From the NCBI GenBank assembly GCA_963783385.1, contig CAWANJ010000009.1, positions 896,410-960,409 of the forward strand: DNA of 64,000 bases. The letters run 5' to 3'. Origin of the DNA: an uncultured Gemmatimonadales bacterium. GTDB taxonomy: Bacteria > Gemmatimonadota > Gemmatimonadetes > Palauibacterales > Palauibacteraceae. Of this stretch, positions 40,697-64,000 are shown piece after piece. A model generated the notes under the pieces. The model worked only from the letters and a program-made list of their open reading frames with translations, was not told the origin of the DNA and searched no databases. Position 1 is the first letter of the stretch. Each line of letters begins with the position of its first letter. Both the position numbers and the translations under genes were made by a program.

Positions 40697-40716
40697 AGGC
40701 ACTCACCTGCATGCGC

Positions 40717-43389: not shown

Positions 43390-43575
43390 GGCGCCCAAGA
43401 TGGGAACGGACCGTGAATTGCGCCAGAATCGCACTACGACGCTCGCTCGGGCCGTCCAGCGAACCACGTGAGCTGCAGCCCACGGTGCATCCCACCGTTT
43501 GCCGGGCCGATCCAGGCCGATCTACGTTCGGGACGTCGGGCGGGCTTTTCGGAACCTCACACCCGGGAAGGCGTC

Positions 43576-45861: not shown

Positions 45862-45900
45862 TTCGCCCTCCTCGAGGGTACAGGTCACGCATGCGCCCCC

Positions 45901-46459: not shown

Positions 46460-46515
46460 CGTCCTCCGGCTCGTCGTCATGGAGCCATGGCCCGGGCTCG
46501 ACGGGATGCGTCCGC

Positions 46516-47514: not shown

Positions 47515-48812
47515 GGTTCTCCGCCGCCTCCCCTCAGCTCCAGCGCCATGTCCTCGTAGTCGATCACGTATTCCTTGAACCCATGAAGGGCGTCCCTTCC
47601 CAGCAGGCACATCAGGTGGGGGTCCTGCCAGGACGGGAGGCTCGTGCGGACGTCGAGGCGGTCGAGCTCGACGGGCGCTCCGGCGACGCCCAGGGTGAGC
47701 CGGGGCAGCACCACCACGGGCAGCCTGCGAATTCCGCCGCTGCCCCCGACCTTCACGGTGTCGACGCGACCCACGCTGTTGACCCAGGACCGGTGAACCC
47801 GGTAGTAGGGCTCGAACAGGATCGTGGTGCCGGATCCGGTGTCGAGCTGGCAGGCCAGCGTGTCGAACCGGAAGGTGACGGAGACGAACGGCGTGTACTG
47901 GTGGAACGCCAGCGTGCCGGCCGCCTCCGACCCGAAGCTGGCCGGCACCGTGATCGTCCCGTCCGCACGGTAGGCCAGCGCGCCGAGCGCTCTCTGGACC
48001 GGAAATCCCAGGAGCCCGGTGATCCGGAGCCCGGGAAAGGTGAGCGCCGAGTCGGGCAGCACCAGGAAGACCACGTGACGGAGCATCGCCCCGCCCACCT
48101 CCACCCGGTCCGCCACGGCGACGTCCGCCCGCACCCGGAGGTCCGTCGAGGACCCGACCTGGAGGTTCGCGGGCCGGATCGCGAGCCCGAGGCCCTCGGC
48201 CTCCGACCGCATGAGCACGGAGAAGTTGGCGCCGCTGTCGAAGGCGTAGCGCCGGGGCGTCGAGTCAATGGACACGGCCACACCGCCGTGGTCGTCCGGA
48301 TGCAGCGTCCCGCCCCGGCGGGCCTCCACGCTCTGGGGCGGCACGTCGCGCAGGGCCTCGAGGAGGCGAGCCGTGTTCGCGAGGTCGCTCTTCCGGGCCG
48401 AGTCGGCGAAGGGCGACGCCATGAGCGCCCGGGCGTCCCTGAGGGCGTCGGCCCACCGGTAGAAGCGCAGGTCGTTCTGGTAGCGAAGCCGCCCCGCCAG
48501 ATAGCCGAGCGAATCCGGAAGGGTCGCCCCGGAGGCCTCCAGGCGGTCCAGGAGCGAGTCCGCGGCGGCCTCCCGGCCGAAGGCGTTGGCCACCACGGCC
48601 CGCAGGTAGAGCGCGTAGGGGCCCTCCCGGTTCCGCTCCGCCTTCAGATGGTCGCGGAGCCGGAAGTAGTCGTGCTCCTGCTCCAGGCGCAGGAGCGCGG
48701 AGCGGGCCGAGTCCGGCAGCGCCGGGGCCGGGCGGGAGCGCTGGCCGCAGCCGGCTCCGGCGCCGGTCAGCAGGACCGCCACCCCCAGCGCCAGGCCGCG
48801 ACGCCCCTCCAT
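47511..48812 (-). CDS. lipoprotein with retropepsin-like (clan AA) aspartic-protease domain; TPR-like N-terminal region
   Basis: Lipobox LLTGAGAGCG. Two Asp-Ser/Thr-Gly motifs (FDSGANFSVL and LDTGSGTTIL), consistent with a pseudo-dimeric or single retropepsin-like fold. The start overlaps the MT stop (ATGA). Confidence 0.55.
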   Translation of the reverse strand: MEGRRGLALGVAVLLTGAGAGCGQRSRPAPALPDSARSALLRLEQEHDYFRLRDHLKAERNREGPYALYLRAVVANAFGREAAADSLLDRLEASGATLPDSLGYLAGRLRYQNDLRFYRWADALRDARALMASPFADSARKSDLANTARLLEALRDVPPQSVEARRGGTLHPDDHGGVAVSIDSTPRRYAFDSGANFSVLMRSEAEGLGLAIRPANLQVGSSTDLRVRADVAVADRVEVGGAMLRHVVFLVLPDSALTFPGLRITGLLGFPVQRALGALAYRADGTITVPASFGSEAAGTLAFHQYTPFVSVTFRFDTLACQLDTGSGTTILFEPYYRVHRSWVNSVGRVDTVKVGGSGGIRRLPVVVLPRLTLGVAGAPVELDRLDVRTSLPSWQDPHLMCLLGRDALHGFKEYVIDYEDMALELRGGGGEP

Positions 48813-49530
48813 CAGGCGGGCCCTCCGGCTCGCGCCGTGAACAGTCCGCGGCCGATGAGTCCCTCCGGGTCGTAGTCGACCTCCGTGAACCCGGCCGCTT
48901 CGAAGCAGCGCTCCAGCTCCTCCCGGGTGAACAGCCCGAGCTCGTGCGTCTCCGTCATGTGCTCGATCCCCTCGCCGCGTCCGACCAGGTAGTGGAACTC
49001 GATCATCGAGAGCCGCCCGCGCCGCCCGGAGAGGCCATCCGGCACACCGTCACCTCCTCGGACTCGGCCGTGTGCAGGAAGACCCGGCCGGTGTGCCACG
49101 CGTCCGGCTCGATCCAGGGCTCGAGCACGACCACCCCGCCGCCGGCCAGGTGCGCGCGAAACCGGCGGAGCGCCCGCTCGACGTTCTCCAGCGTCTTCAC
49201 GTATCCGATGGAGCTGAACAGGCAGAGCACGGCGTCGTACCTCCTGCCCAGGTCGAAGTCCGTCATGTCCCCGCGGGTGAACGTGCGGTCCGGGTGCTTG
49301 CGCCGCGCCAGGCGCACGAAGTCCGGCTCGACATCCAGGCCGTCGACGTCGTAGTCGTGGTCTCGCGCCAGGAGCCGCCCGTGCTCTCCGGTGCCGCACC
49401 CGACGTCCAGCAGGGTGCGGGCGCCGGTATGGAGACGCCCGAGCAGCTCGGCGACCCGCCGGCTCTCGTCGGCGTAGTCCTTGATCTGCCCGTAGATCTG
49501 GTCGTACAGCTCCGCGGATCTCGAGAACAT
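48812..49530 (-). CDS. class I SAM-dependent methyltransferase, one frameshift near 49020-49040
   Basis: ATG (rc 49528-30). Motif I LLDVGCGTGEH. The C-terminal 60 aa (...IEFHYLVGRGEGIEHMTE...) are in ORF 48812..49399. Confidence 0.65.
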
Positions 49531-49582
49531 CGGGCGCTCCGGGGCAGGTGTGCGGTCCGTTCGGCGGCGCTCCGGGCGCCGC

Positions 49583-50787
49583 TCAGGGCTCCGCGGACGC
49601 CGGGCGTCCCGCCTCGCAGGCCCCGCGGGCCCTGGCCAGCCACGCTCCCTGCATGGCATCCATCGCCATCCCGTACCGCTCGGCGAGGCGGCCCCGGTTC
49701 CAGGCCGCCGACGAGTCGGCGTCCAGGGTCCGGTAGGCCGCTTGGAACCGGTCCAGCCCCCGGGCCTCCACCAGGTACTTCACGAAGGACCCGACTCCGC
49801 GTACTCGCTGGGGGCACGCTCGGCGCTCGAGCCAATGTTGTCCAGAGCGAGGAGCTCCTCCAACGGGATGAGCCGCGGCGTGCCCTCCAGGGCGCACACG
49901 GCCTGGTCGACCGACTTCCCGGGGGCGTTCAGGAAGGCGAGGGCGTCGCCGCCGAGCTGCTCGGTCACGTACACGGCGAGCCCCTCGCCGAGCGCCGGCG
50001 GCGGCGATCCGGCCGCGGCCGCCACGATGTGGGTGAGCTCGTGATAGGAGTCGAGCCGGACCGAGTCGTTGTAGACCTCGACCAGCGTGTGCCCGAAGGC
50101 CCAGCCCACCCCCTGGTGGCCGGTCTGCCGGAGCTTGGTGGCCCCGTCCGGATAGAAGACGAGCCGCACGCGGGCGGGAGGCTCCACCCCCACGAGCGCC
50201 GCAATGTCCTTCAGCGCCTCCAGGCGCGCCGCCGCGATGGAGTCCACGCGGCCCGCGGCCAGCGACCCTTTCCACGCGTAAATCTCCAGGGGCCCGCGCC
50301 TCGTCACCGTGAAGTCGCGCGCGGGATCGAACGCGTCCGGACTCGTCTCCCCCACGGGGAACGTCCGCCGGTAGTCCACCCGGTCGAAGGCGAACAGCCC
50401 CTGCTGGATCGGATGGCCCGGCCCGACCTCGACCCGCAGGGTGCCCTCGCGGCTCAACCGCCGGAACTCGTAGCGTCCCTCCAGCACCTTCTGCTCGCCG
50501 GGGGCGAGCTGGACCGTGAAGCGCGCCTGCATGTTCGGGAGCATCCACAGGCCCGGCACGGCCCGGAGGTCCATCACCGCCAGGACCGCCGAGTCGGACC
50601 GGTTGCGGACCGTCGCCCGCAGCGGGTTCTCTCCCAGGCGCGCCGTGTCGAAGGAGAGGGAGACCACCGACAAGGTCGTGTCGGCCCGGGCGGCCCGGCG
50701 AGTGACACCGGTTCGTGCCACCGGGAGAGCCGGAAACAGGGCCACGAGAGGCAGGAGCATCGCGGTCCTCGCGCTGGTCTTCGCCAT
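49583..50787 (-). CDS. secreted HExxH-motif protein (putative zinc peptidase), one frameshift near 49830-49860
   Basis: ATG (rc 50785-87) with a signal peptide (MLLPLVALFPALPVA). HELTH motif at ...RLDSYHELTHIVAA. The C-terminal roughly 80 aa are in ORF 49583..50548. Confidence 0.5.
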
Positions 50788-51002
50788 GGTCGGAGACCCC
50801 ATCGGTACGTGGCCGGGTTTTCGGATACGTCCCACGCGCGCAACGCGAACGGGCCGGTAAGAGGTTCCGGGGCCGGCCCGTTCGCCACGGGCAGGGCCCG
50901 GTTCACCGTACCGATCGCCTCATCGGCCCCGGCGCCGTTGTCGGCCGCCGCGGGGTGGCCTAGGGTCCATCCCACCGTGGACTCCCACACATCAGGGGCA
51001 TC

Positions 51003-53443
51003 ATGCGGCGATCGGCACGACAGGCCACGCGGCGACTCTCCCGGGCCATGATCCTCCTGCTCCCGGCCTGGGCCGGCTCGGCCTCGGGGGCGGTCGGCCG
51101 AGGCCCGGCGCAGCGGCCGCACGGACACCCGAATCCGCCCCCCTCGACGTCACCTACTACCGGATCCACCTGGCGGTCGACCCCGCCCGCCAGCACATCG
51201 CCGGACAGGTGACCATCGCGCTCCGCGGCGCCCCGGCCGCGCCCGACAGCGTGCGGCTCGACCTCTCCGACTCCCTGCGGGTGGCCGCGGTTCGCCGGGA
51301 CGGGCGGCCCGTCCCGTTCACGCACCGCGGCGGCGTCCTGGCCGTCCCCTCGGAGACGTCCGGCGGCGCCCGCGAGGTCCTCGAGGTCATCTACGACGGC
51401 CGCCCCTCCGGGAACGGCTTCACCTTCGCGCGGGGCCCGGACGGCCCGCGGGTCGCCAGCTATGGCATGCCCTACCACGCGCGGCAGTGGTGGCCCAGCC
51501 ACGACGTGACGGCGGACAAGGCCGACTCGGCGGACATCCTGGTCACGGTGCCGGACGGCCTCCTCGCCGTTTCCAACGGCCGGCTGGTGGGACGCAGCCG
51601 GGGGCCGGCGAGGACGTCGACCTTCCACTGGGCGGAGCGACACCCGATCTACCCGGACGTGGTGTCGGTGGCCATCGCCCCGTACGCCACCTTCTCGCTC
51701 TCGCACGTGGAGGCCGACGGGGACACCCTGCCCCTCCGGTTCTACGTGTTCCGGGAGGACTCGGCCAAGGCCCGCGAGGACTTCTCGATCCTCCCCGACC
51801 TCCTCGCCTTCTATGAGCGGCTGTACGGGCCCTACCCGTTCGCGGACGAGAAGTACGGGCTCGCCGAGTTCACCCTCCCGAGCTTCCGCGAGCACCAGAC
51901 GATCCCGAGCCTGGGCGCCGCGCGGATCACGGGGACGCACCGGTACGACTGGATCCTGGCGCACGACCTGGCGCACCAGTGGTTCGGGAACTCGCTGACG
52001 CCCGCCTCCTGGAAGAACGTGTGGCTGAACGAGAGCTTCGCGCAGTACTCCTCGCTCCTGTGGCTCGCGCACACGCGGGGCCGCGCCGCCTTCGACAGCG
52101 CGATCCAGAGCCTGGCCTCGCGCGACGTCCCCGGGCCGCTCGAGATCGCCGACACCACCAACATCCGGTCCATGTTCTCGGGGCTCACCTTCGGGAAGGG
52201 TCCGGTGGTCCTGGACCGGCTGCGGCGGGCCATGGGGGACAGCGCCTTCTTCCTGGCCCTCCGTCGCTACACCGCCCGCTTCGCCTACGGCACCGTGACC
52301 ACGCGGGACTTCCAGGAGGTGGCCGAGCGCGCCGCGGGCTGTTCCCTGGACGGCTTCTTCCGCGAGTGGGTGTACGGGCGCGGCACGCCCGACGACTCGG
52401 AGAGTCCCGAATCCTCAGCCGGACGACGGAGCAATGCGTTTTTTCGGGCCCACGCCGGAGAGCGCCCCCGCCTGCCGGACTCGTCCTACCACCAGTTCGA
52501 CTTCTGGATCGGCGACTGGGACGTGGTGAACCGCCAGCGCCGCCCGCAGGGAACCCAGTGGGGGGTCACCGGGCAGGCCACCGACCGCGTGCACGCGGTG
52601 GCGGGCGGGTGCGGAATCGTCGAGCACTGGCGAGGGACGACCGCCATGGGCCGGGTCCTGGGCTACAGCCTCCGGGCCTGGAACGCCGCCAGGAAGAAGT
52701 GGGACCTGGTCCTCCTGTGGCCCCAGCCGAACCAGCCCAGCTTCTTCACCCTGGAGGGGGCGTTCGGGACGGCCGCGGCGAGTTCTTCCGCACCGCCACC
52801 AACCCGGCCGGGAACGAGGTCCGGGTCCGCTTCACCTTCTCCGACATCACCCCCAACTCCCTCCAGTGGAGCAACGGCACCTCCCGGGACGGCGGGCAGA
52901 GCTGGTCCTCGACCTGGATCATGGAGTTCACCCGCAGGGACTCCGCGGCCGGCCCGCTCCCCAACGGCCCCACCACGGCCCGCGACCGCTGCACCTTCCC
53001 GAGATGCGCCAGATGGACGGGTGGCTCGGCGAGTGGGAGGGAGAGGCGGTCCTGGCCTCCGGCGACACCGTGCCCGCCCGGGCCCGGAGCTACGAGATCC
53101 TGGACGGCTGCGGCCAGGTGGACCGGATCGAGCTGGGCCGAGGTGCCGGTGCCGTGCGGGTCTACCGGGTGCGGACATACGAGCCCGATCCGGGGCGGTG
53201 GGTGGAGTACCGGCTGGACAGCCGGGACGGGGTGATCGACAGGCTGGAGGGCTCGGTGGAGGGCGACGCGGCGCTAATGGAGACGCCGGACGGCGCCGAG
53301 GGCGTGGGGAGCGCCGGGCCGTCCGCACGCGCTGGACCCGGATCGGGCCGGACGGCGTCGAGTTCGAGACGGCGGTTCGGCGCGGGGCGGGAGCGTGGAC
53401 GCCTCTGTGGAGGGTGACCCTGCGGCCGACGGAGGGCCAGTAG
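51003..53443 (+). pseudogene. M1-family peptidase (signal peptide; HDLAH variant of HExxH) fused or read through into tandem DUF1579-like domains; multiple frameshifts
   Basis: Signal peptide ORF 51003..51212, with a frame switch near the C6 run at 51140. M1 core GMPYHARQWWP, LAHDLAHQWFGNS and WLNESFAQY lie in ORF 51209... From about 52440 there are DUF1579-like signatures FDFWIGDW and WLGEWEG, spread over three frames. The P/S/T/G/R-rich middle of ORF 51209..53443 is a frame artefact. Confidence 0.6.
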
Positions 53444-53786
53444 GCCGCCGGTCCGACCCGCGCTGCGGCGGCCAGCCGCGACCCGCCCCCTCTCGATCCG
53501 TGACCCGCAGAGGGGCAGCGGATGCCGACCGCCACCCTCGCAATCGAGCCCGGCACCTGGCGTACGCTCGGCACTCTTGCCTCGACGACCCGGCCCCCAT
53601 CAGCTCCGACCCTCCCGTTCGCCTTGCCCGGCATCCGAGCGGGACTCTAGCTTTCGATTCCGCTTCCTGCTCGGCAGACAGGGGCGTCGAGATGCTCCCC
53701 ATCCTTCGACCTCTGCTCGTCCATTACGTGGCGCGCTGATACCCGAGCTCGCGGCCGAACCTCACCCAAGCCCGTGACGGTCAGCC

Positions 53787-56631
53787 ATGGCAAACTCGCA
53801 AGAGCTGTTTCGCTTTCAGGTGATTCGACCGCCACGCCCGGGTCTGGCCTCGAGCGCGCCTGACGAGCCCGAACCGAAGAGTGAGCTGGCACCCGAGATC
53901 GAGGGCTCGGAGACACAAGACGAGGCGCTGCGATCCGCGGAAACCTACCGGTCCTCGTCCAGCTACGTGAGTGGGCTCTCCGACATCCCGGAGAGTATCG
54001 AGACCTCTCGAACTGGATCGACCAGCACCCGGGGGCGGACGACGCCGAAGTGAGTGCGGCGGTCGCCACGCACCTCGACGTCGATCCGAAGGAGGTCGTC
54101 GCATCATCGGAGTTCGCCGAGCTCCAGGTCCGTGTAGCGGACAGCGAGATCGCGGACCTGCTCAGCGGCGAGGCAGGAGCGGCCCGTGCCGTGGGCCGCA
54201 TGCTCCTGCGTATCCGACAGGCCGCCGGCGAATCCACGGTCGGTGCGGGACTTCCGATCGACGTGCGACTTCCAGGCCCGCCCGCACCGACGGACGGCGG
54301 GAAGACCGTCCCCGACGTCTCACCCGGCTCCACGCTGGAGGAGTTCCGCGCTCTGGTCGATCTGCGGGCCAGACTCCACCGCGGCGCCGTGGAAGCTCTG
54401 GCGACCGGCCGGCCGGGCACGGGGGCGATCAGCGCTCATGTACGCTTGGATCCAGCGGCGCCGGCAGCCGGGGGCGGCGACCGTCGGTTCCGGGACCTCA
54501 CGCTCGAGGATCTGCCGCTCGATGAGTCGGACCGGACCCGACTTCGGGACTTGCAGCTCGAGTCGGGAACGGGGGTGCTGGAGGCCCTGCGGTCCGTGCA
54601 GGAGCGAATGGACCGCGCGCTCGAGGACGGCGTGGGCCCCGCCGGGAGCGACCCGGCGAGCGCGAGGACCAGAAGCCTGGCCATGACCTCGGAGCTGCCG
54701 CGGTTTCTCTTCGAGATCGGAGCCGGATACGCCCAGGGCTTCAAGGTCATGGATCTCGAAGTGGGCGAGCGCACGCTCAAGCGGTACGAAATGGCGGAGA
54801 TCGCCCACATTGAGAATGCGCTCCGGGGCGAGCTGCGCGTTCGAGATCACGTCCGCGGCACGGTGCGCGAGGACATCACGATCGTCGACGATTCGACGCT
54901 GAGGTCGACCGAAGAGGACCTGCAGAGCGACGAGCGCTTCAGCCTTTCGAGACAGGCGCAAGACGTTCAGAGAGCGGAAACGGAGCTCCAGGCCGGGCTC
55001 AAGGTCAATGCGAGCTACGGTCCCGCGGTGCGGGTGGAGATCACGGGAAGCGCGAGCCAGAACCGATTCAACGAGACGGTCCAGAACGCGGCTAGCGAGT
55101 ACGCACGCAACGTCACGAGCCGGGCCGTCAGCCAGAATGCAGACCACCCATCGAGAGCAGAGGATCACCCGGCAGGTCGAGTCCGTGGAGGAGAGGAACC
55201 ACCACGAGATCGACAACAGGGGTCAGGCGGATCATGTCATCGGGGTGTACCGCTATATCGACAAGACCTACGAGGTCGCGGTGCGCAACTACGGGGTCCG
55301 ACTCGTGCTGGAGTTCATCGTCCCCGAGCCGGGAGCGAATCTCCTGCACGCGGCGGCGGCGAGCGGATCGGCGGCGCAGGTCGAGAAGCCCGAGGAACCG
55401 ACGTTCTTCGATCGACCGCTTCGACTGACGGACATCCGCGACGACAATGCCTACCGGGTGATCGCCAGTCGGTACGGGGTGGAGGTGGAGCCGCCCCCGC
55501 GTCCGCTCGTCGCCCTGACGGAGGTGCAGTTCGACCACGACTCGGCCAAGGAGGTGCAGCCGGCCGGGACCGTCGCGATTGCGAAGGGTTCGATCCCGGT
55601 GCCGGACACGCATTATCCGTCCAGCGTATGGGGTCGATTCGCGGGCTTTCAGACGGAGGTCGGTCTGTCGCTCTACACGCCCGACGACACGGCCGGGGCC
55701 GGGTACTCCGACCCGCCACCCGACAGCCTGGTGGGGAAGGAGTACGCCGTCTTGGTGCAAGAGGGCGAGATGTCGGGGAGGGGCCCCATCCTCGTCGACC
55801 TCGAGCAGATCACGGAGCAGGCGGCCGGACCCGTCGACTTCGCCGCCGTCTCGCGAGAGAACCCGATCACCGGCGGCGTGCACGGCGGCGGTGTGGTCGA
55901 AGCCTTCTGCCTGCCCACGGCGGCCGCGTTCCAGGCGTGGCAGGTCAAGACGTTCAACGCCATCATGGACGCGTATCGACGGGAGCTGGACAAGTCCAGG
56001 AAGCACTGGCGGCCGCCGACATCGGCGCGGGTGTCCGGATACAGGGCCGCAGCCCGGACATCAACCGTGAGTACGAGCGCAACGAGCTGAAGCGCGGCGT
56101 GATCACGTTGCTCGAGGGATCGCCGCCCGACACGCCGGCGATCGCCGGGGACGGCTTCAGCCCGGTGCCGGCGATGGCCGCCTCCCACGGCCCGAAGATC
56201 TCCTTCTTCGAGACCGCCTTCGAGTGGGAGCACATGACGTACGAGACGCTCCCGTACTACTGGGCGCGCCACGATCAATGGGATGCCTTGCTGTCGATCG
56301 ACGATCCCGATCCCGAGCATCGCAGATTCCTGCAGGCGGGGGCTGCGCGCGCGCTGATCCCGGTCCGCCCGGATCACGAATGGTACGTAGCCGGCGTGCT
56401 GACCGCGATCGTCCTCCACGGTGGCACCATCGCCCCCAGCCTGTTCGAGCCATCGCGGGGCCGGCCGTGATCGTTCGGTCCTTCTACGAGGCGGTCACCG
56501 ACGTGCTCGACGCACGGTCCCGGGAGAGCGATGATGAGCCGAGGACCGTGGGCCAGCCGTTCGAGGTGACCGTGCCTACGAATCTGGTGATCCTGCAGAA
56601 GGACTCTGCGCTCAATCCCCACGACGCCTGA
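53787..56631 (+). pseudogene. very large hypothetical protein 'ORF B' (about 948 aa), no recognisable family; at least 4 frameshifts
   Basis: A protein-like reading requires frame switches at about 53990 (…SDIPE|YRDLSNWIDQHPGADDAEVSAAV…), 55140, 56010 and 56450 (…SLFEP|IAGPAVIVRSFYEAVTDVLDARS…NPHDA*). GC is about 60-62% against roughly 70% in the flanks. Confidence 0.5.
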
Positions 56632-56639
56632 GCTCCACC

Positions 56640-58862
56640 TTGGGCTCACCTCTCTCCGTCCACCCGGCACCGCGCGCGGTGCTGGAGCTGGCGGCGTGGC
56701 CAGTCCCGGATCCGGCGATACGAACTCCCCTGGCCGACGAGGACCGGTATTCAGGCGACCCGGGCTTCTTCGCGGTTCCGTCCGACTCCGAGGTTCCGGA
56801 ACGCTGGCTGCATTCCGACACGACCCGCCTTGCGGTACGCTCCGTCAACGACACCGACCCTTCGCTCCGTCGAGGGGCGAGGGAGTCGCTGGCGACTGGC
56901 GTCAGCCGCCAGGTCCCCGATTTCGATCTCTTCCGCGAAGCGATGAGCCGCGAGAAGGCCATCAATGTGATCCTCCTTCTCGTCTTTCCGGGCAGCACGG
57001 CCGACAACACGGGCACGAAGGACCTGAATGACAAGGTCCTCGGCTATTCACTGACCTCCGAGTACATAAGGAAGAGAAACGCGGCCATCGACGCCGTGTT
57101 CGAGGCCGAGGGCTTCGTGATGATCGATCAGGACTTCAAGTCGAGCGGCTTCGTGCCGACCGCGGAGGCGTCCAGGCACCTTCTCGACGCCGGGCAGGCG
57201 CAGAAGAAGCGCTCGCGGGAGTATCGCGAGCGCTTCGACCGGGGACTGTCCGCCCTGGACGGGCGACTGCGCGACCTCCTGCTGGACATCCTGCAGAATC
57301 GATTCGACGAGATCGATGAGACGCACCGGGAAGCGGCGCGGACGTTACGGGATCGCCTCCTGGAGGACGCGGACCATCGGTTCGACGTGACCTACGGCAT
57401 GGCCAACCCTGCGGGGAGAGGGGCGACCTCCCAGGACATCTACCCCCCACTGCTCCTTGCGAAGCTGAATGCTTCCAAGGCCTCGTACACGGCGCGGCGT
57501 CGGGACCTGATCGACTCCCTGCTGCCAGGCTGGCACGGCTCCGACTTCGACCGGCGCGGGTACGCGTTCGACCCGGCCACGTACCAGCGCCTGTCCGTGA
57601 AAGCCGGGGAGATCAGAGACGAGATTCGGCGACACCTCGATGGCCAGATCACGGTGGACGGAGTCCGCGCCAGGGTCTTCGTTCGGGTCCGGGGAAAGCT
57701 GACCCCCAACCGCCACGTGATGCGGGACGCCCGGAAGGGGAAGATCAAGCCGCCGGATCCCTCACCGGAGAAGGACCAGCTCGAGCGCATCGAGGGATAC
57801 CGAGCCATCGTCAACACGATGGACGTGTTCGAGAGCTTCCTCTCTGGCGAGCTGGACGGCGAGAAGGCCGGGCAGCTCCGACGCGCCACGCGGCTCCACG
57901 AGAAGCTGGGGAGGATGGACACCGATATCGGGCGAGGCGAGCTCTCGCGGGTGCTCGACGTCGATGTCCGCATGGAGAGGATCGCGCTGGCAAACCGGAC
58001 CTCCGAGTACCTGTTCTTCACGGAGGCGGCCGATCATCGACATCGAGTCATCGTCGGTCTCGACATCCGCGATCTCGGAGTGGACGCGCTGATCGAGTAT
58101 GCCCGGGCGGTGGACCGGGTGGCCGAGAAACCCGGCACGAGCCTGCTGGCGGTCACGCTCGAAGCGAACGATCCGATCCTGGCCATGAAGCGCCACGCCG
58201 TCGACCTGATCGTCGACGCCTATGGCAAGATGGCGTCGAAGCTGCTGGCGGCCGACGTGGGCTGGTTGCATGACGCCGCCGAACCGTACAACCGTGCCTG
58301 GGCGGAGGCCTACGGCTATGCCGGAGGCTTCGACATCCTCGCCGACCCTCTCGACCGCTCGGAGTCCCCCAACTACCTCATCGGCGGCGACGAGGTGATT
58401 CTCGCGCTCCCGCCCGCGTTTCTGCCGCTGATCCCCGAATTCCTGGGGCGGGTCTGCCCGCCGTCGGCCACGAACACTCGCGGCGCCGTGGTCTTCTCCG
58501 ACGCCGGTCACCCGCCCGACGCGGATCCCGCGGTTCAACGTCGGCTGAATCAGCACGCCCACGCGACCGCGCTGACGGCGGCCGACAAGGGGCCCGACAT
58601 CCTGAAGGACCTGGAGCGAGATCACTGGCGGCTCGGACGGAAGATCGAGAAGATCGACGACGATGCGGAAAGGCGGGAGAAGCAGCGCCGCCTTGCCGGC
58701 CTGGGGCTTCTCCGATTGTACGTCGAGATTCCATCGCTCTACGGCATTCCCGACCTTCTCCCCAGTCGTGTCTTCATCAAGGACTTCTCCGGGACGAAGA
58801 GGAGCTTCTTCGACCTGAAGCGTCGCATCGCCGAGCTCGAGAAGGAGCTTCCGGCCACCTGA
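56640..58862 (+). CDS. large hypothetical protein 'ORF C' (740 aa) with C-terminal GGDEF/palm-like signature
   Basis: The ORF is intact, with a TTG start 9 nt after the ORF B stop and lower GC. The C-terminal region has VIVGLDIRDLG (58050-58080) and RSESPNYLIGGDEVILALPPAF (GGDEV at 58383-58397). This matches the GG(D/E)EF plus hydrophobic run plus P pattern of diguanylate-cyclase and mCpol palm domains. The N-terminal 500 aa are unrecognised. Confidence 0.55.
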   Translation: MGSPLSVHPAPRAVLELAAWPVPDPAIRTPLADEDRYSGDPGFFAVPSDSEVPERWLHSDTTRLAVRSVNDTDPSLRRGARESLATGVSRQVPDFDLFREAMSREKAINVILLLVFPGSTADNTGTKDLNDKVLGYSLTSEYIRKRNAAIDAVFEAEGFVMIDQDFKSSGFVPTAEASRHLLDAGQAQKKRSREYRERFDRGLSALDGRLRDLLLDILQNRFDEIDETHREAARTLRDRLLEDADHRFDVTYGMANPAGRGATSQDIYPPLLLAKLNASKASYTARRRDLIDSLLPGWHGSDFDRRGYAFDPATYQRLSVKAGEIRDEIRRHLDGQITVDGVRARVFVRVRGKLTPNRHVMRDARKGKIKPPDPSPEKDQLERIEGYRAIVNTMDVFESFLSGELDGEKAGQLRRATRLHEKLGRMDTDIGRGELSRVLDVDVRMERIALANRTSEYLFFTEAADHRHRVIVGLDIRDLGVDALIEYARAVDRVAEKPGTSLLAVTLEANDPILAMKRHAVDLIVDAYGKMASKLLAADVGWLHDAAEPYNRAWAEAYGYAGGFDILADPLDRSESPNYLIGGDEVILALPPAFLPLIPEFLGRVCPPSATNTRGAVVFSDAGHPPDADPAVQRRLNQHAHATALTAADKGPDILKDLERDHWRLGRKIEKIDDDAERREKQRRLAGLGLLRLYVEIPSLYGIPDLLPSRVFIKDFSGTKRSFFDLKRRIAELEKELPAT

Positions 58863-58937
58863 CCTTGGCCCTCCCGCCGCCCCGGCTACGGCCCGCAGGG
58901 CGGCGTCGAGAGGTCGCGGACGGCCACCTTCGCGTCG

Positions 58938-59177
58938 TCACAATCGGAGCCGTAGAGCGAGCAGTAGCGAGATGTCGACGCCCACCCGGTCTGCAATGCT
59001 GTCGAGCGAAGCCAACGCCCCGGCCGAGCCGGCGGCCACCCTGGCCTCCAGCAGCACCGCCTTCCGGCCCGCCGGGAAGTAGTAGCCGACCGCGAACCGG
59101 TGCACCCGTCCCTTCATTCCTCGCGACAGGATCGCGTCGAGGACGGGCTTCCATCCACCGAAGATCGCCGACGGCAA
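58938..59177 (-). CDS. small hypothetical ORF (79 aa, TTG start)
   Basis: GC3-rich codon usage and a protein-like sequence (…GRVHRFAVGYYFPAGRKAVLLEARVAAG…). It could equally be a gene remnant. Confidence 0.25.
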   Translation of the reverse strand: MPSAIFGGWKPVLDAILSRGMKGRVHRFAVGYYFPAGRKAVLLEARVAAGSAGALASLDSIADRVGVDISLLLALRLRL

Positions 59178-59344
59178 GGGTCCGGAGTCGGGCCGGATCC
59201 ACGAGAGCAGAACAGGGCGAGCGAGTCCGAAAGCTGCGCCATCCCGCGCGTCGAGGTCAACGGCGTGCGACGTGCGGCCGGCCGAGAGCGGTGGGCGGGG
59301 AGCGTCCGACGCGGGGAGCCGCCCGCGCTGACCGGCGGTTCGAC

Positions 59345-59471
59345 TCAGGTCTCTTCCTGGATCGGAGACGAGCGCAGACGGCGATCGAACTCGCGGGCAT
59401 CGAGCGCGCGGTGCAGATCGGTCTCGAGGCCCCCGACCCGCTCCCGCAGGTCCGCGGTCTCACGGGCCATT
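59345..59471 (-). CDS. small ORF (41 aa, coiled-coil-like MARETADLRERVGGLETDLHRALDAREFDRRLRSSPIQEET)
   Basis: Below the ORF-track size cut-off. The ATG overlaps the stop of the upstream small membrane ORF (ATGGcccgTGA). GC3-rich. Confidence 0.25.
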
Positions 59472-59639
59472 CTGGTCGACCCGCCTCTGCGTGTCTTCGG
59501 CCGCGAGGCCACGCAGACGCGCGAAACGGTCGATCAGGGGCCCGATCGTGAAACGGGCCGTCAGACCGACCACGGGAACGAGCACGACGACGATCATCGC
59601 ACCGAGGCCTATGAGGTCCTTGACCTGGTACCACTCCAT
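59461..59639 (-). CDS. small single-TM protein (59 aa, MEWYQVKDLIGLGAMIVVVLVPVVGLTARFTIGPLIDRFARL...)
   Basis: It is the in-frame tail of ORF 59460..60587, whose upstream part is junk. ATG rc 59637-39. One hydrophobic helix. Confidence 0.3.
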
Positions 59640-59975
59640 GGGTCCGGCTCCGCTCGCAATGACGTGACGAAGGCCCCGATCCGAGGCGGGGCGTACGCCC
59701 TTCCTGACGGGGCCCGGGGGATCGGAGTTTCGGACGTCCCGAACCTGGCGTCGATCGCCAACACGAGCCAGGGCGATAGCATCCTGGGCGAAGCCGCCTG
59801 AGTCCAGCGTCCGGAACCGGCGGAACGGCCCGCCCGCGGTCCGGGTTGTGCCGGATGGCCCGCCGACCGACACATTTCCGAGCGAGTGAAGAAGGGAGCC
59901 CGAGATGCATCGTCCGAGCATGGCCGCCGGGCCGGCGACCCGGCGGCACGCGAGCCGCTTCGTCCGGTTCCGCCC

Positions 59976-60470
59976 ATGGTGACCGACGCGTCGCCCGATC
60001 CCCGGACCGAGCTCATCCGGCACACGCTGGCGACCGTCGCGTATCGCGGCGCCAAGGCCCTGCGCGGGGCGCCCGCGGGCTTCGGCGCCTACCGGGTGGG
60101 ACCCACCTCCCGGACCCCCGCGGAGATCCTGGCCCACGTCGGGGACCTCCTGGAGTGGTCCGCCTGGCTCCTGCGCGGCGAGCATCGGTGGAGCGACTCG
60201 GACCCCCTCGCATGGGAGGAGGAGGTCGAGCGGTTCTTCGGCCTGGCCGACCGCCTCGACAAGACCCTCCTCACCGTGCGTCCCACGGAATGGACCCTGG
60301 AGCAGATCTTCCAGGGGCCGATCGCGGACGCGCTGACCCACATCGGGCAGCTCACCATGCTCCGCCGCCTGGCCGGGGGCCCCGTGCGCGGGGAGAACTA
60401 CGCGAAGGCCGAGATCCTGAGCGGGCGGGTGGGACCGCGGCAGGCCGAGCCCCGCTTCGAGTTCGACTGA
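59976..60470 (+). CDS. DinB/YfiT-like (DUF664) family protein
   Basis: ATG 59976. Contains LIRHTLATVAYRGAKAL...PAEILAHVGDLLEW...HIGQLTMLRRLAG. Confidence 0.7.
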   Translation: MVTDASPDPRTELIRHTLATVAYRGAKALRGAPAGFGAYRVGPTSRTPAEILAHVGDLLEWSAWLLRGEHRWSDSDPLAWEEEVERFFGLADRLDKTLLTVRPTEWTLEQIFQGPIADALTHIGQLTMLRRLAGGPVRGENYAKAEILSGRVGPRQAEPRFEFD

Positions 60471-60585
60471 GCGGAGCGCCCCGCGCAACGCGCGCCGTCG
60501 CTCGCCCCGCTCCGCGGCGGCCCGCTCGCGTCTCCCATACGGCAAGAGGGAACGGCCATGGTCCCGATACGTACCATGAGCCCGC

Positions 60586-61839
60586 ATGAAGACCGAGCGA
60601 ACGAGACTGAACCGTCAGGAGTGGTGGGCCGTCGGCACCTTGAGCGGCGTGTTCTTCCTGCGCATGCTCGGGATCTTCCTCGTGCTGCCGGTGCTGGGCC
60701 CGTACGCGAGCAAGCTGCAGGGAGCGACGCCCCTGCTGGTCGGGCTGGCCTACGGCGCGTTCCCCCTGCTGCAGACGGTGTTCCAGGTGCCGTTCGGCTG
60801 GATGAGCGACCACCTCGGGCGCAAGCCGATGATCGCCCTGGCGCTGGGCCTGTTCACCGCCGGCAGCGTGTGGGCGGCCTTCGCGCACTCCATCTGGATG
60901 CTCATCGGTGCGATGGCGCTGCAGGGCTCCGGGGCCGTCGCCGCCGTGATCCTCGCGCTCGTGGCCGATCTGACGCGACCGGAAGTCCGGACGCGCTCCA
61001 TGGCCATGATCGGGAGCAGCATCGGGCTCGCCTTCGGCGTGGGCTTCGTGGGCGGCCCGCTCCTGGCCGGCCACCTGGGCGTCGCGTCGATCTTCGGGCT
61101 ATTGGCCGTGGTCACGCCCCTCGCGCTGCTCGTCGTCCTGTTCGTGGTGCCGACCCCCGACGAGCTGCCGCAGCGCGACGAGGTCGGGGGCTCGGCCGGC
61201 GGGTTCAGGCACGTGATCACGGACCCCGACCTGCTGCGGATGGACAGCGGGATCTTCATGCTCAACGGCACCCTGCGCGGGCTGTTCCTGGTGGCTCCGT
61301 TTCTCCTGTCCACCCTGGTGGAGCAGCAGCACGAGTGGCTGGTCTACCTGGGCGCGCTGCTGATCGCCGGCGTCGTGATGGTGCCGACGATCATCTTCGC
61401 CGAACGCGACGGGTACATGAAGGAGGCGCTGTACTTCTCGCTGCTGTCGCTGGGCGCGGGGCTGCTCCTGTTCACGGGCGGCGGCCGGAGCCTCACGTGG
61501 TTCTTCGTGGCCATCTCGCTGTACTTCATCGGCTTCAGCCTGCTCGAAGCCATCATGCCCTCGCTGTTGACGCGGCTGGCCCCGTCCAACGACCGCGGCA
61601 AGGCCACCGGCGTGTACAACATGAGCCAGTACCTCGGCTCGTTCGGCGGAGCCCTGCTCGGCGCCGCCTTCCTCAGCGGCGACAAGGCCGAGGCCATCGC
61701 CGTGGGCTCCCACTACGGGCTCCTGTTCCTGCTGCTGACCGGCGTCGTCGCGATCTGGGCCTGGGTCGCGTGGAAGCTTCCCATGCCCACGCGCCAGCAG
61801 GCCGCCGCCCACGGTTCGGCCGCCGGGGAGAAGACCTAG
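60586..61839 (+). CDS. MFS transporter
   Basis: Twelve TM helices. MFS motif A-like GWMSDHLGRKPMIALA and the second-half repeat. Intact ORF. Confidence 0.8.
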   Translation: MKTERTRLNRQEWWAVGTLSGVFFLRMLGIFLVLPVLGPYASKLQGATPLLVGLAYGAFPLLQTVFQVPFGWMSDHLGRKPMIALALGLFTAGSVWAAFAHSIWMLIGAMALQGSGAVAAVILALVADLTRPEVRTRSMAMIGSSIGLAFGVGFVGGPLLAGHLGVASIFGLLAVVTPLALLVVLFVVPTPDELPQRDEVGGSAGGFRHVITDPDLLRMDSGIFMLNGTLRGLFLVAPFLLSTLVEQQHEWLVYLGALLIAGVVMVPTIIFAERDGYMKEALYFSLLSLGAGLLLFTGGGRSLTWFFVAISLYFIGFSLLEAIMPSLLTRLAPSNDRGKATGVYNMSQYLGSFGGALLGAAFLSGDKAEAIAVGSHYGLLFLLLTGVVAIWAWVAWKLPMPTRQQAAAHGSAAGEKT

Positions 61840-61916
61840 AGGGCTGGGGCGCCCACCTGTGGGCGCAGCGGCCGCCAACCAGACGGCCCCCGCGCGTCAC
61901 GCGCCCCCTCAGCCCC

Positions 61917-62398
61917 CTACTCGCCCCCCTCCGCGGCGGCCCGCTTGGCGCGTGACAGGTAGCCGGGCTTGAGGTCCAGCAGGTTCGCGATCTTGCGGGT
62001 GAGGTACTGCTCTTCCCTGGCGATCTTCCCATCCGCCAGCACCAGCCCCCACATCACCTCGGCCAGCACCATCTTCTGCCCCAGGTCGTAGCTCTTCCGG
62101 ATGATCGAGGTGGCGTGGTAGTAGTCCACGGACTCGCGCCGCTCCTTCTCGGCCAGCTCCAGGAGGTGCTCGCCCGAGTCGGCCGGCAGGTCGAAGTGGC
62201 GCTCCAGCACCCCCTGCAGGTGGGCCCGCTCGTCCCCCGTGAACGCCCCGTCGGCGTACGCGACCTCCAGGAGGAGGGCGCACGCGGCCACGTGCGCCGG
62301 GTCGGTCTCCGGGGAATCGGCCTCGGGGGCGTCGTCGGATTCGGACGAATGCGAGCCGAGGAGAGTGCTTGATCGCGTCGAGCAGCATGGCAGTCCGG
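61917..62398 (-). CDS. TerB-family (tellurite-resistance-like) protein, one frameshift near 62370
   Basis: N-terminus MLLDAIKHS... (frame of ORF 61909..62808), then ORF 61917..62453 frame (…DPAHVAACALLLEVAYADGAFTGDERAHLQGVL…MVLAEVMWGLVLADGKIAREEQYLTRKIANLL…). Confidence 0.6.
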
Positions 62399-62553
62399 GT
62401 GAAAGGGAAACGGTGTCGGCGGGAAGGTGCCGCGGGCGGCTCGTCCGGCGCAACGAGCGTTCGTCCCCCCGCTCGAACGTGGCGCCGGGCGCGCGTCACC
62501 GCGGATTGCAGATCCTTCGGCCGCGTCGCCGCCCCACGAGGCAGGGAGCCCGA

Positions 62554-62582
62554 TTGCCATGTATAACGTGATGCGTTATACT
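62554..62582 (+). promoter_or_regulatory. higBA promoter with overlapping inverted-repeat operator (GTATAACG-tgatg-CGTTATAC)
   Basis: -35 TTGCCA (62554-59), a 17-nt spacer and -10 TATACT (62577-82), 6 nt before the higB ATG. A perfect 8-bp inverted repeat at 62561..62581 overlaps the spacer and -10. Confidence 0.5.
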
Positions 62583-62587
62583 GAGCC

Positions 62588-62881
62588 ATGATCGAGTCCT
62601 TCGGGAACCCCGGGACGGAAGACATCTTCGACAATCGGAATACGAAGGCGGCACGGCGGACGTGCCCCGGGACGCTGTGGCGCGTGGCCCGGAGGAAGCT
62701 CGACCAGCTGAACCAGGCGGAGATCCTGGAGGACCTGAGGGCACCCCCGAGCAATCGGCTCGAGAAGCTTCGAGGCGATCGGACGGGGCAGCACAGCATT
62801 CGGATCAACGAGCAGTACCGGGTCTGCTTCCGGTGGACGGAGCACGGCCCGGAAGACGTGGAGATCGTCGACTATCACTGA
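62588..62881 (+). CDS. higB: type II toxin HigB (RelE/ParE superfamily, plasmid-maintenance killer type)
   Basis: 97 aa, MIESFGNPGTEDIFDNRNTKAARR...QHSIRINEQYRVCFRWTEHGPEDVEIVDYH, a classic HigB end. Confidence 0.8.
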   Translation: MIESFGNPGTEDIFDNRNTKAARRTCPGTLWRVARRKLDQLNQAEILEDLRAPPSNRLEKLRGDRTGQHSIRINEQYRVCFRWTEHGPEDVEIVDYH

Positions 62882-62900
62882 TGCCGGGGAGAAACGAGCC

Positions 62901-63206
62901 GTGACGCGCCTGCCGGCCAACCGCCCTCCCACCCATCCGGGAGAGATGCTGCGGGAGGAGTTCCTCATCCCGCTGGAGATGACTCAGACCGAGCTCGCCC
63001 GGCGGATCGATGTCTCCTATCCGCGGGTGAACGAGATCGTCAACGGGAAACGAGGGATCACGCCCGACACGGCCCTCCGCCTGTCGCGCCTGTTCGGCAC
63101 GACGCCGGAGTTCTGGCTGAACGGCCAGAGGAACTGGGACCTGTGGCACGCGCTGCACAGCCCGGAGGCGGAAGACATCGAGAAGATCGAGCCGGTCGGC
63201 GTGTAG
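62901..63206 (+). CDS. higA: antitoxin HigA (XRE-family HTH)
   Basis: 101 aa, HPGEMLREEFLIPLEMTQTELARRIDVSYPRVNEIVNGKRGITPDTALRLSRLFGTTPEFWLN. Confidence 0.8.
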   Translation: MTRLPANRPPTHPGEMLREEFLIPLEMTQTELARRIDVSYPRVNEIVNGKRGITPDTALRLSRLFGTTPEFWLNGQRNWDLWHALHSPEAEDIEKIEPVGV

Positions 63207-63229
63207 CGGCGGAGGAAGGGCAGCCCCTT

Positions 63230-63553
63230 CCCCGCTATGCGACATTCGCTTCAGATCGGCCAGCGCCGCCTTCGACGAGCGGCATGACGTAGTACAGGAA
63301 GCCGGCCGCCTCCCCCGAGTCGTAGAGCGGCAGGATGTGCGGATGCCGGAGGCTCGCCGTGGTCTTGATCTCGGCCAGGAACCGCTCGGCGCCGAGAGCC
63401 GCGGCCAGGTCGGGGCGCAGCACCTTGATCGCGACCCTGCGGGAGTGCTTGAGATCATCGGCCATAAAGACTGTGGCCATACCGCCTTCAGCGACCTTGC
63501 GCTCGATGGCGTAGCGGTCGGAGAGGGCGGCGGTCAGGCGGTCCGCGAGGCCC
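63230..63553 (-). pseudogene. 5' remnant (about 100 aa) of a Ser/Thr kinase gene, start lost, truncated next to higBA
   Basis: After the upstream stop (…KGAGRP*) the same frame reads AGLADRLTAALSDRYAIERKVAEGGMATVFMADDLKHSRRVAIKVLRPDLAAALGAERFLAEIKTTASLRHPHILPLYDSGEAAGFLYYVMPLVEG. It then shifts and ends near a GGAAGGGcagcCCCTTCC hairpin (63211-28) abutting the higA stop. Confidence 0.55.
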
Positions 63554-63555
63554 GC

Positions 63556-64000
63556 TCACGGGCGCCCCGCCCCCTTCAGCTTCGCCCGCAGCTCCGGCAA
63601 CCAGTGGCGCACGAGCACGAGCCTGGGCGCCGAGGCGGCACTCGCCCCTTCGGACGCGACGGGGCGGACCATGATGAACCGACGGTCGTCGGGCGCGACC
63701 GCGTAGAAGTGGCTCTGGAAGTTGGCCAGGTACCCGCGCGCGTCGAACAGCCGGTGGTGGGCCCCCGCGGAGAAGGTGGAGCCGGTGGTCACGTCGACGG
63801 CGATCATCTCCCCGGCGCCGTTCCGGTAGAAGAGCTGGCGCCCGTCGTGCGACCACTCGGCCTCCGTGCCGCCGTCGCTCGAGATCGGATAGAGCCCGTC
63901 CCCCGCGTCGGGGAACGGACACACGTAGATCTCCATCCGCCCCGAGGACGAGGACGTGTAGGCGAGCCAGCGGCCGTCGGGCGACAGGGCCGGACCGTAC
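63556..64000 (-). CDS. C-terminal beta-propeller end of another Ser/Thr-kinase/TolB-like protein (gene starts beyond window end)
   Basis: rc of 63556-64000 reads …SPDGRWLAYTSSSSGRMEIYVCPFPDAGDGLYPISSDGGTEAEWSHDGRQLFYRNG…RLVLVRHWLPELRAKLKGAGRP*, the same tail architecture as kinases 1-3. Confidence 0.6.
   Translation of the reverse strand, partial: YGPALSPDGRWLAYTSSSSGRMEIYVCPFPDAGDGLYPISSDGGTEAEWSHDGRQLFYRNGAGEMIAVDVTTGSTFSAGAHHRLFDARGYLANFQSHFYAVAPDDRRFIMVRPVASEGASAASAPRLVLVRHWLPELRAKLKGAGRP

Follow-up and report, generated by a model that had tools for sequence, protein, structure and literature searches.

The last kilobases of the window (by which we mean the whole stretch of 64,000 nucleotides analysed, from an uncultured Gemmatimonadales bacterium) carry a higBA toxin-antitoxin pair next to a truncated Ser/Thr kinase gene. 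This arrangement raises the question of which partner was there first. The initial annotation had taken the pair for a mobile cassette that was inserted into a kinase paralog and replaced most of it, and it located the features themselves correctly; as described below, the insertion or replacement was only partly supported, the pair looking instead like the resident of the site. An assembly chimera was rejected as the origin of the arrangement because the junctions between higBA and the kinase stub were found in nine independent contigs from ENA, NCBI, JGI and Logan, with 98-99.9% identity. The features are collected in Table 1.

Table 1. Features at the right end of the window, with positions counted from its first nucleotide
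Feature	Position	Strand	Remarks
TerB-family gene	61917-62388	-	Left neighbour of higBA; PF05099, 96.7 bits
TerB upstream region	62389-62498		Common to relatives to varying extents
higBA module	62515-63207	+	Bounded by homology to higBA loci in unrelated contexts
Sigma-70-like promoter	62554-62582	+	TTGCCA-17-TATACT; promoter scan, layout kept in homologous loci
Operator-like palindrome	62561-62581		GTATAACG-TGATG-CGTTATAC; over promoter spacer and -10
higB	62588-62881	+	97-aa RelE-superfamily toxin
higA	62901-63206	+	101-aa HTH-XRE antitoxin
GC-rich hairpin	63206-63236		Between convergent stop codons; core GGAAGGG-CAGC-CCCTTCC
Junction filler	63234-63267		34 nt; source of the non-kinase tail GAGRSEANVA* in the stub ORF
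Ser/Thr kinase 5' stub	63268-63555	-	Codons 1-96, N-lobe only; profile match and paralog homology
Extra base	63548		Window-specific; absent in L001, L002 and L008
propA, C-terminal end of the preceding kinase-propeller gene	63556-64000	-	PD40; continues beyond the window edge

The higBA operon and its promoter

The toxin gene comes first and is followed on the same strand, after a gap of 19 nt, by the antitoxin gene, as expected for a higBA operon. HigB matched the PF05015 profile over its full length (58.9 bits against a cutoff of 27, residues 23-97 aligning to positions 18-91 of 91), and its closest solved structure was GraT (PDB 6f8s_B, E = 9e-26 over residues 3-97). HigA matched the equivalog TIGR02607 (113.1 bits against a cutoff of 47.7) and carries an HTH-XRE domain (PF01381, 47 bits), with structure matches to 3trb, PaHigA (7csv/6jpi) and GraA (6f8s_A). 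Proteins of the HigB family are RelE-fold ribosome-dependent mRNA endonucleases, and those of the HigA family are HTH-XRE dimers that neutralise HigB and repress their own operon. Going by family membership, the HigB of this locus would be an mRNA-cleaving toxin, and its HigA would both neutralise HigB and repress the operon. PADLOC returned no defence-system matches for higBA and the large neighbouring ORFs except weak generic HTH ones to HigA, and Rfam gave no known RNA in the region at E ≤ 1. As judged from sequence, higBA is here a chromosomal operon of type II, apparently intact and ordinary, that belongs with GraTA and PaHigBA.

The initial annotation had assigned the pair its own promoter, with a perfect 8-bp inverted repeat over the -10 box, and both elements were confirmed at 62554-62582. 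The TTGCCA-17-TATACT sequence was the sole promoter-like site in a scan of 61.8-64 kb, shuffled sequences giving 0.1, and its -10 box ends only 5 nt before the higB ATG, so that the higB mRNA is probably leaderless and the toxin probably translated from it in that form. The two arms of the repeat, GTATAACG at 62561-68 and CGTTATAC at 62574-81, overlap the -10 box, and the inverted-repeat pattern occurs once in the 64-kb window against an expectation of 0.02. Within the palindrome, at 62564-62571, lies a GraA-type core, TAACGTGA, whose position corresponds to that of the operator core bound by GraA, TAACGTTA (PMC6393540), and of the operator bound by PaHigA, TTAACGTTAA (PMC6987408). The layout of promoter and operator is kept in L050, L048, L051 and L053, and the two elements are conserved across five loci, one of them on a Rubrobacter plasmid. 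At the sequence level, the predicted operator thus overlaps the operon's own promoter, and HigA would repress by occupying the TAAC/GTTA palindrome, situated between the -35 and -10 boxes and over them. The suggestion of HigA autoregulation is well supported by this homology to the GraA and PaHigA operators.

The kinase stub and its junction with higBA

In agreement with the initial annotation, a kinase N-terminal fragment directly follows the stop codon of the preceding gene. The stub starts at 63555 on the minus strand, right after the TGA (63556-58) of propA, just as array genes follow one another near 38.1 and 40.7 kb, and it matches positions 1-83 of the 263 of the Pkinase profile (PF00069). 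The counterpart of propA continues in L001 (10655-12412 and beyond), and its intact relatives of 898 aa are P0242 and P0244. The stub opens at the GTGA overlap and is homologous to every paralog as far as 63268, the DNA homology to six paralogs stopping at 63267-63269. The HRD catalytic loop, the DFG motif, the activation segment and the propeller are all missing. The rest of the kinase was described as absent, and indeed no trace of it was found, nor did the region to the left of higB (62441-62545) give any match to a kinase or propeller 3' remnant. The breakpoint near the higA stop codon also exists, but the distance is 61 nt, about 20 codons, and not the few codons first indicated. These data support, at the sequence level, that the stub is what remains, at the 5' end, of a kinase-propeller gene that used to be complete; this gene would have been the last in a tandem array linked through GTGA stop/start overlaps.

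The stub evolves under relaxed constraint. Its dN to nine intact paralogs is 0.18-0.21, four to five times that among the intact ones (0.016-0.087 in the 26 pairs listed), its dN/dS is 0.21-0.36 compared with 0.03-0.22 for intact pairs (one pair at 0.33), and the alignment places its substitutions at sites that do not vary among the intact paralogs. Because the catalytic and activation loops are missing and the sequence is decaying, the stub is best classed as a pseudogene remnant, and the difference in dN indicates that the truncation is old rather than recent.

The frame of the stub spans 106 codons between two stops, from 63555 to 63238. The start codon had been reported as lost, which is true of this sequence but specific to this assembly: because of the extra base at 63548, the GTG start (63557-63559), which overlaps the TGA, is not in frame with the stub, whereas in L001, L002 and L008 the GTG overlaps the TGA as GTGA and opens an ORF of 107 aa. 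The stub ORF remains open in most strains. A second 1-nt insertion confined to the window, near 62365-62367, frameshifts the N-terminus of the TerB-family gene, whose product has 156 aa in L001-L004. Such apparent frameshifts and lost starts in the window are probably single-base insertion errors, which matters for other findings made from this sequence.

The hairpin reported beside the higA stop codon is present (folding energy -35.6 kcal/mol, z about -2). It is not followed by a T-run on either strand, and the terminator scan returned 0 sites, so that it does not have the full form of an intrinsic terminator; it is nevertheless probably the terminator of higBA. In a related species, designated P, positions 63207-63233 accompany higA (L055 1090-1234 matches window 63233-63089 at 88%). 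The 34-nt filler between hairpin and stub had no match elsewhere.

Comparative loci and the history of the site

Homology delimits higBA as a discrete module. L050 matches 62515-63207 at 91.5% nucleotide identity, L048/49 match 62544-63207 at 81.7% and L046/47 match 62686-63210; altogether the module was found in at least four other contexts, where homology ends 1-4 nt past the higA stop codon. Its GC content is 63-66%, compared with 70-74% in the flanks. Around it in the window lie TerB, MFS and the kinase array. On the left side, homology in the TerB upstream region reaches 62459-62498 in species Q, R and T and only 62438-62440 in species P; the form contiguous with higBA is common to four of the five species, and only P has the short form, which lies beside the intact kinase. 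A scan of metagenome contigs with TerB returned two close loci.

In species P (L055/L056), the order is an 898-aa gene, an 887-aa kinase-propeller gene, 42 nt, TerB and MFS, with no higBA there. The comparison with relatives proposed in the initial annotation thus did reveal an intact kinase at this position, 887 aa long, between the propA homolog and TerB; in L054, the propA homolog is likewise followed by a kinase start. The same species carries elsewhere a higA 3' end with the hairpin (window 63089-63233, 88% identity), and beyond its array it has MacB-OmpW-HNH. In species Q (L017/L023), the TerB upstream region is kept to about 62498 and is followed by a higB remnant of 44-60 nt, which corresponds to window 62690/62707-62750 and has kept its place and orientation (alignment score 63 against 19.5 +/- 3 for shuffles), and no kinase lies beside this left junction. 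Q and P share a collinear segment formed by a 110-nt leader, a DUF222/HNH gene, a 290-aa gene and gene X. In Q the left end of this segment adjoins the higB remnant, and in P the right end adjoins that of higA; the Q contigs end before the right junction, and the split of higBA is pieced together from the two species. The stub is absent from both, except for about 30 nt of its start in L009. This locus also belongs to species P (its MFS-TerB is 98.3% identical to that of L056, from which it differs by 2667 nt, about one array unit), and its stub start, the first 22 nt of which equal the L001 stub, is joined to the TerB upstream region at 62440. L009 was dropped as proof of a clean deletion of higBA and stub, since it comes from the same species as L056 and is ambiguous: it represents either a 1084-bp deletion of a window-like arrangement or the loss of one array unit. 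The 7-nt GGGCGGC repeat (62434-40 and 63525-31) is only an alignment overlap with L009 in GC-rich DNA.

In three species-level lineages the toxin-antitoxin pair shows synteny with TerB-MFS, beside which it appears to be ancestral; this is largely what the initial annotation had itself named as speaking against its reading. From these comparisons we infer, with a probability of roughly 0.6, that an intact GraTA-like higBA was resident and that the kinase array was broken against it by an old rearrangement. As to order and direction, the common ancestor of three or more species-level lineages would already have had higBA, with its hairpin, upstream of TerB-MFS. A single old illegitimate-recombination event in the window lineage would then have fused kinase codon 96/97 to a point some 34 nt beyond the hairpin, most simply as a deletion of at least 2.4 kb that took the rest of the terminal kinase gene and whatever lay between. 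In the sister lineages, the same locus may have been destroyed by insertion of the HNH/DUF222 segment and, later, of a kinase-array segment. Because TerB/MFS identities among the species are star-like (87-94%), parsimony over the three lineages is weak and the polarity unproven. The P arrangement, with an intact kinase beside TerB, could itself be ancestral, and in that case higBA and the distal TerB upstream region would have replaced the kinase by homology-facilitated recombination.

The opposite order of events, in which a mobile higBA cassette entered a complete kinase-propeller gene beside TerB and everything from codon 97 onward was lost through the insertion or an associated deletion, seems unlikely, its most plausible route being homology-facilitated illegitimate recombination anchored in TerB-MFS. 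In its favour are the intact 887-aa gene that occupies the slot in L055/L056, the sharp bounds of the module and its presence in several unrelated contexts and on plasmids, a GC content 5-8 points under that of the flanks, and a block (60540-64000) of 98.8% identity between the window and L001, which suggests recent exchange, adjoining DNA being only 91-93% identical. Against it, the left junction is common to species Q, where no kinase adjoins, the higA remnant of P, together with the same hairpin, is found across the HNH-containing segment, at its opposite end, the TerB upstream form contiguous with higBA is found in four of the five species and the short form only in P, and the decay of the stub, which is 74% identical in nucleotides to the L056 kinase gene and resembles it no more than it does other paralogs, points to an old event. 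Moreover, the search for target-site duplications or terminal inverted repeats flanking higBA gave nothing beyond chance matches, no transposase or integrase gene lies by the module and no tRNA gene was found in 50-64 kb. A transposon-like insertion was rejected on these grounds, and higBA shows none of these attributes of an IS, transposon, integron cassette or integrative island. The look at mobility context suggested in the initial annotation showed a module that is discrete and recurs in other contexts and on plasmids, with no mobility genes at this site.

A further proposal, that the 0.7-kb module is a recurrent rearrangement hot-spot or landing pad, is prompted by three different breakpoints in three lineages, each lying in the module or at most about 60 nt away, namely the fusion to the kinase array in the window, the HNH/DUF222 segment splitting higB from higA in Q and P, and the further array insertion in P. 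The intact pair might also stabilise the kinase array, through post-segregational killing of deletion derivatives of this deletion-prone array. We regard this proposal as rather improbable.

Still less credit can be given to the idea that the stub arose by internal deletion of the last kinase-propeller gene, whose own 3' end and terminator were left beside higBA, a chance neighbour. The hairpin does lie exactly between the two convergent stop codons, and LADLKRM, read from the filler in one frame, bears a vague likeness to the C-terminal W..ELR..M motif of the family, but the filler aligned to six kinase-propeller 3' ends no better than shuffles did (at best, 20 of 500 shuffles equalled the observed score), for which reason it was discarded as an original 3' end, and in species P the stretch 63207-63233 and its hairpin go with higA and not with a kinase. 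Equally hard to credit is a functional small protein, a decoy or regulator consisting of the N-lobe alone and translationally coupled to propA, despite an ORF open in L001, L002 and L008 from a GTGA-coupled GTG and free of internal stops under heavy divergence, since residues invariant in intact paralogs are substituted, dN is four to five times higher, the last codons of the ORF come from the junction filler, the window sequence breaks the frame, P and Q lack the stub, and stops are rare in GC-rich DNA, which leaves an open frame of 107 codons with little weight.

Relation to known systems

The kinase stub has its counterparts in the tandem arrays of Ser/Thr kinases with TolB-like propellers of Gemmatimonadota, with which it shares the GTGA start context and the first 96 codons. 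The intact array proteins have about 890 aa (P0242-P0246 and the 889-aa gene of L037); in contrast to them, the stub is cut within the N-lobe, has neither catalytic loop nor DFG motif nor propeller, and is under relaxed constraint. The comparative loci reverse the intuitive reading of a mobile toxin-antitoxin pair entering a gene, in that the pair looks resident and the paralog array looks broken against it. Beyond annotation the significance is small, the locus being an ordinary finding, of low novelty, of a known toxin-antitoxin kind.

Among higBA loci, that of plasmid 3 of Rubrobacter radiotolerans (NZ_CP007517) has the same promoter/operator layout, with 71% (HigB) and 62% (HigA) amino acid identity, and differs from the window copy in that the latter lies on the chromosome and has neither plasmid nor conjugation genes around it. 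The antitoxin also matches that of Pseudomonas aeruginosa HigBA (PaHigA; PDB 6JPI, 7CSV) at E about 2e-19. PaHigA autoregulates through TTAAC GTTAA palindromes in its own promoter (PMC6987408); compared with that system, the palindrome here occurs only once in the 64-kb window, and there is no sign of additional regulon targets. The likeness to Pseudomonas putida GraTA (PDB 6F8S, 6F8H; PMC6393540) comprises the toxin (E = 9e-26), the antitoxin (E = 6e-17), the toxin-first gene order, and the core, TAACGTGA here and TAACGTTA for GraA, with further TAAC/GTTA-like half-sites over the promoter. In GraT, the N-terminus of the toxin acts as a derepressor. The differences are that the host is a high-GC Gemmatimonadota genome, that the core palindrome has one mismatch in the window (it is perfect in L050 and L053), and that the -10 box abuts the start codon, the mRNA being probably leaderless. 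The locus thus offers a clean Gemmatimonadota case of a GraTA-like higBA with a conserved promoter/operator, probably of the leaderless type.

Gene content around the higBA module

The limits of the higBA module were set independently by three other loci whose neighbours differ at each (see the table), and its GC content is 63-66% as against 70-74% in the surroundings. An MFS transporter lies, together with TerB, to the left of higBA. At one of the three loci (L046 335-860, and L047) higA is intact and the first 33 codons and the promoter of higB are missing, leaving an orphan antitoxin locus. The gap between module and kinase remnant spans about 60 nt. A GC-rich hairpin that lacks a T-run takes up its first 27 nt (63207-63233); judged by its presence with a higA remnant in another species (P), the hairpin is part of the TA locus. 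For the remaining 34 nt (63234-63267) no match was found.

Features of the higBA region and matching loci of other assemblies
Feature	Window position	Strand	Remarks
806-aa ORF	54050-56470		in 7.1-kb segment
740-aa ORF	56640-58862		in 7.1-kb segment
TerB	61917-62388	-	left of higBA
higB	62588-62881	+	97 aa
higA	62901-63206	+	101 aa, 19 nt 3' of higB
Kinase stub reading frame	63555 to 63238	-	106 codons
PD40 propeller gene	TGA at 63556-58	-	upstream of stub
Match to L050	62515-63207		91.5% nt identity
Match to L048/49	62544-63207		81.7% nt identity
Match to L046/47	62686-63210		82.5% nt identity

The stub frame opens with a kinase N-lobe (Pkinase profile positions 1-83 of 263), and its DNA homology ends at 63267-63269, after '...YYVMPLVEG', in all six paralogs compared (three in the window array, at 37.8, 40.4 and 43.1 kb, and three in contig L001 of a related assembly), so the fragment is a genuine truncated paralog, as the initial annotation had proposed. 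When aligned over the stub codons, the intact paralogs are highly alike, and the stub departs from them at many invariant positions. The dN values between the stub and nine intact paralogs were 0.18-0.21, compared with 0.016-0.087 among intact paralogs, and the dN/dS values were 0.21-0.36, compared with 0.03-0.22 and one pair at 0.33 (intact ranges from the 26 pairs listed), with similar dS in both comparisons. Nucleotide identity of the stub to every paralog was 74-80%, with no clear closest partner. The higher dN and the divergence at invariant positions indicate prolonged relaxed constraint, and by this substitution pattern the stub is a pseudogene of long standing. That its frame stays open over about 100 codons is, in GC-rich DNA, no evidence of function.

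Nine other contigs show the TerB-higB-higA-stub-propeller arrangement as well, with 98-99.9% identity. Gene calling in L001, L002 and L008 gives the stub a 107-aa ORF, with a GTG start that shares bases with the preceding TGA (GTGA) in the manner of the intact-array junctions. Relative to these three contigs, the window carries one extra base at 63548 and three nearby substitutions, and the GTG is out of frame. TerB is frameshifted by another extra base found only in the window, near 62365-67, and the kinase-propeller gene at 43.4-40.7 kb is broken up by a further three +1 insertions when compared with its intact ortholog in L037. All five window differences (62365-67, 63548 and three within 40700-43405) are single-base insertions with respect to every near-identical or orthologous assembly and look like consensus errors; therefore, the reported loss of the start codon should not be treated as biology. 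Such insertions probably explain why the kinase-array genes at 35-43 kb are each split into two or three ORFs. Past the window end, the array runs on in L001 (10655-20306) with at least another four kinase-propeller units, which are heavily frameshifted; the naming of this contig points to a long-read assembly. In short-read relatives the encoded kinase-propellers are intact, at about 890-900 aa (P0242-P0246).

History of the locus

Species-representative genomes were scanned with the MFS protein, TerB homologs and homologs of the upstream propeller gene, which yielded four informative states, one of them that of the window species itself. In species P (L055/L056), an 898-aa kinase-propeller overlaps by 4 nt an intact 887-aa kinase-propeller, followed after 42 nt by TerB-MFS with no higBA between them, and thus the comparison with relatives that the initial annotation had proposed finds an intact kinase at the stub position. 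Three contigs of the same species (L009, L041 and L043; 98.3% in MFS-TerB) lack that 887-aa unit and keep only about 30 nt of a kinase start, joined to the TerB upstream region at 62440; the evidence of L009 on the history is ambiguous. In species Q (L017/L023), the TerB upstream region matches that of the window as far as about 62498; next to it lies a degraded higB remnant, oriented as in the window and carrying an indel of 1 nt (window 62690/62707-62750; alignment score 63 versus 19.5 +/- 3 for shuffles), which is followed by a DUF222/HNH gene. Species R and T (L037-40, L044/45) have TerB in other contexts and keep a long upstream region, to 62472 and 62459, respectively.

The kinase-array contig of species P also holds a higA 3' end (residues 64-101) with the hairpin, 88% identical to window 63089-63233 and adjoining DUF2442/DUF4160. 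A collinear segment shared by Q and P (110-nt leader, DUF222/HNH gene, further genes, a 290-aa gene and gene X) abuts the higB remnant at its left end in Q and the higA remnant at its right end in P. Because the two remnants lie at opposite ends of this segment, one ancestral higBA next to TerB can be reconstructed, which would have been split by an insertion replacing roughly window 62751-63088; this split is pieced together from Q and P, the right junction of Q being off contig. In a second step in species P, a segment with the kinase array, MacB and OmpW would have taken the place of the higB remnant and of the distal part of the TerB upstream region; this is suggested by a 110-nt repeat (L055 5365-5474 and 9242-9351) and by the restriction of the short TerB upstream form to P.

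The evidence thus leans toward higBA being an ancestral resident, intact only in the window lineage, with polarity set by parsimony because the species are about equidistant (87-94% nt). The derived feature of the window would then most simply be the right-hand junction of higBA with the kinase array, which may have been made by one old deletion with its ends about 34 nt past the hairpin and at kinase codon 96/97.

In L055 1-1716, DUF4160-DUF2442 and the higA 3' remnant lie between two copies, about 85% identical, of the 3' part of one gene (50-490 and about 1298-1716), a layout that suggests TA genes were carried along in a duplicative rearrangement. The sequence of about 110 nt upstream of the DUF222/HNH gene, found also at L017 1788-1899, has its second L055 copy just upstream of the first kinase gene; the two copies bracket OmpW-MacB, and the repeat is a possible recombination substrate or shared promoter.

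If the arrangement of species P were ancestral, TA-bearing DNA could have replaced the kinase by homology-facilitated illegitimate recombination, along the lines of the initial annotation. Block exchange between related genomes does occur, since window 60540-64000 is 98.8% identical to L001 and the left flank (45893-53432) only 91-93%, a difference that indicates a different history of the block. The jump in identity falls across a 7.1-kb indel, and the MFS-TerB-higBA-stub-propeller block appears to have been shared or recombined recently between genomes that are otherwise diverged. The 7.1-kb segment (53433-60539) is absent from L001 and L009, where Peptidase_M1 stands almost directly before MFS, and only its right end (59893-60472) is common with species Q; its two long ORFs have no Pfam or PADLOC match. 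Insertion of a mobile TA cassette into the kinase is not supported, since no direct or inverted repeats, tRNA or mobility genes were found in the higBA flanks and the evidence leans the other way.

Promoter, operator and relation to known HigBA systems

The identification of higBA proved sound in profile searches, with HigB matching PF05015 at 58.9 bits (cutoff 27) and HigA matching the equivalog TIGR02607 at 113 bits (cutoff 47.7). TTGCCA-17-TATACT (62554-62582) is the sole promoter-like site within 61.8-64 kb, and a perfect inverted repeat, GTATAACG/CGTTATAC (62561-68 / 62574-81), overlaps its spacer and -10; this pattern occurs once in 64 kb versus 0.02 expected. The -35, palindrome region and -10 are common to five homologous modules, namely those of the window, L050, L048, L051 (a Gemmatimonadota MAG locus) and L053 (a Rubrobacter plasmid locus), and the perfect core is present in L050 and L053. 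In four of the five, 5 nt lie between the end of the -10 and the higB start codon, and in the Rubrobacter plasmid locus there are 7 nt, which points to a conserved leaderless higB mRNA. This spacing (window 62577-62590) is kept in loci from different phyla.

The window higBA adds a new member to a well-known family, from a phylum that has received little study. Among solved structures, P. putida GraT (6f8s_B, E = 9e-26) comes nearest to the toxin, and C. burnetii VapI, P. aeruginosa HigA and GraA come nearest to the antitoxin. The window core TAACGTGA (62564-71) is one mismatch from TAACGTTA, the central palindrome bound by GraA as two cooperative dimers (PMC6393540), and also resembles the PaHigA site TTAAC GTTAA (PMC6987408). 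Taken together, the operator layout kept in the five modules and the likeness to the GraA and PaHigA sites make autoregulation by HigA, as the initial annotation suggested, a well-founded expectation for the predicted operator.
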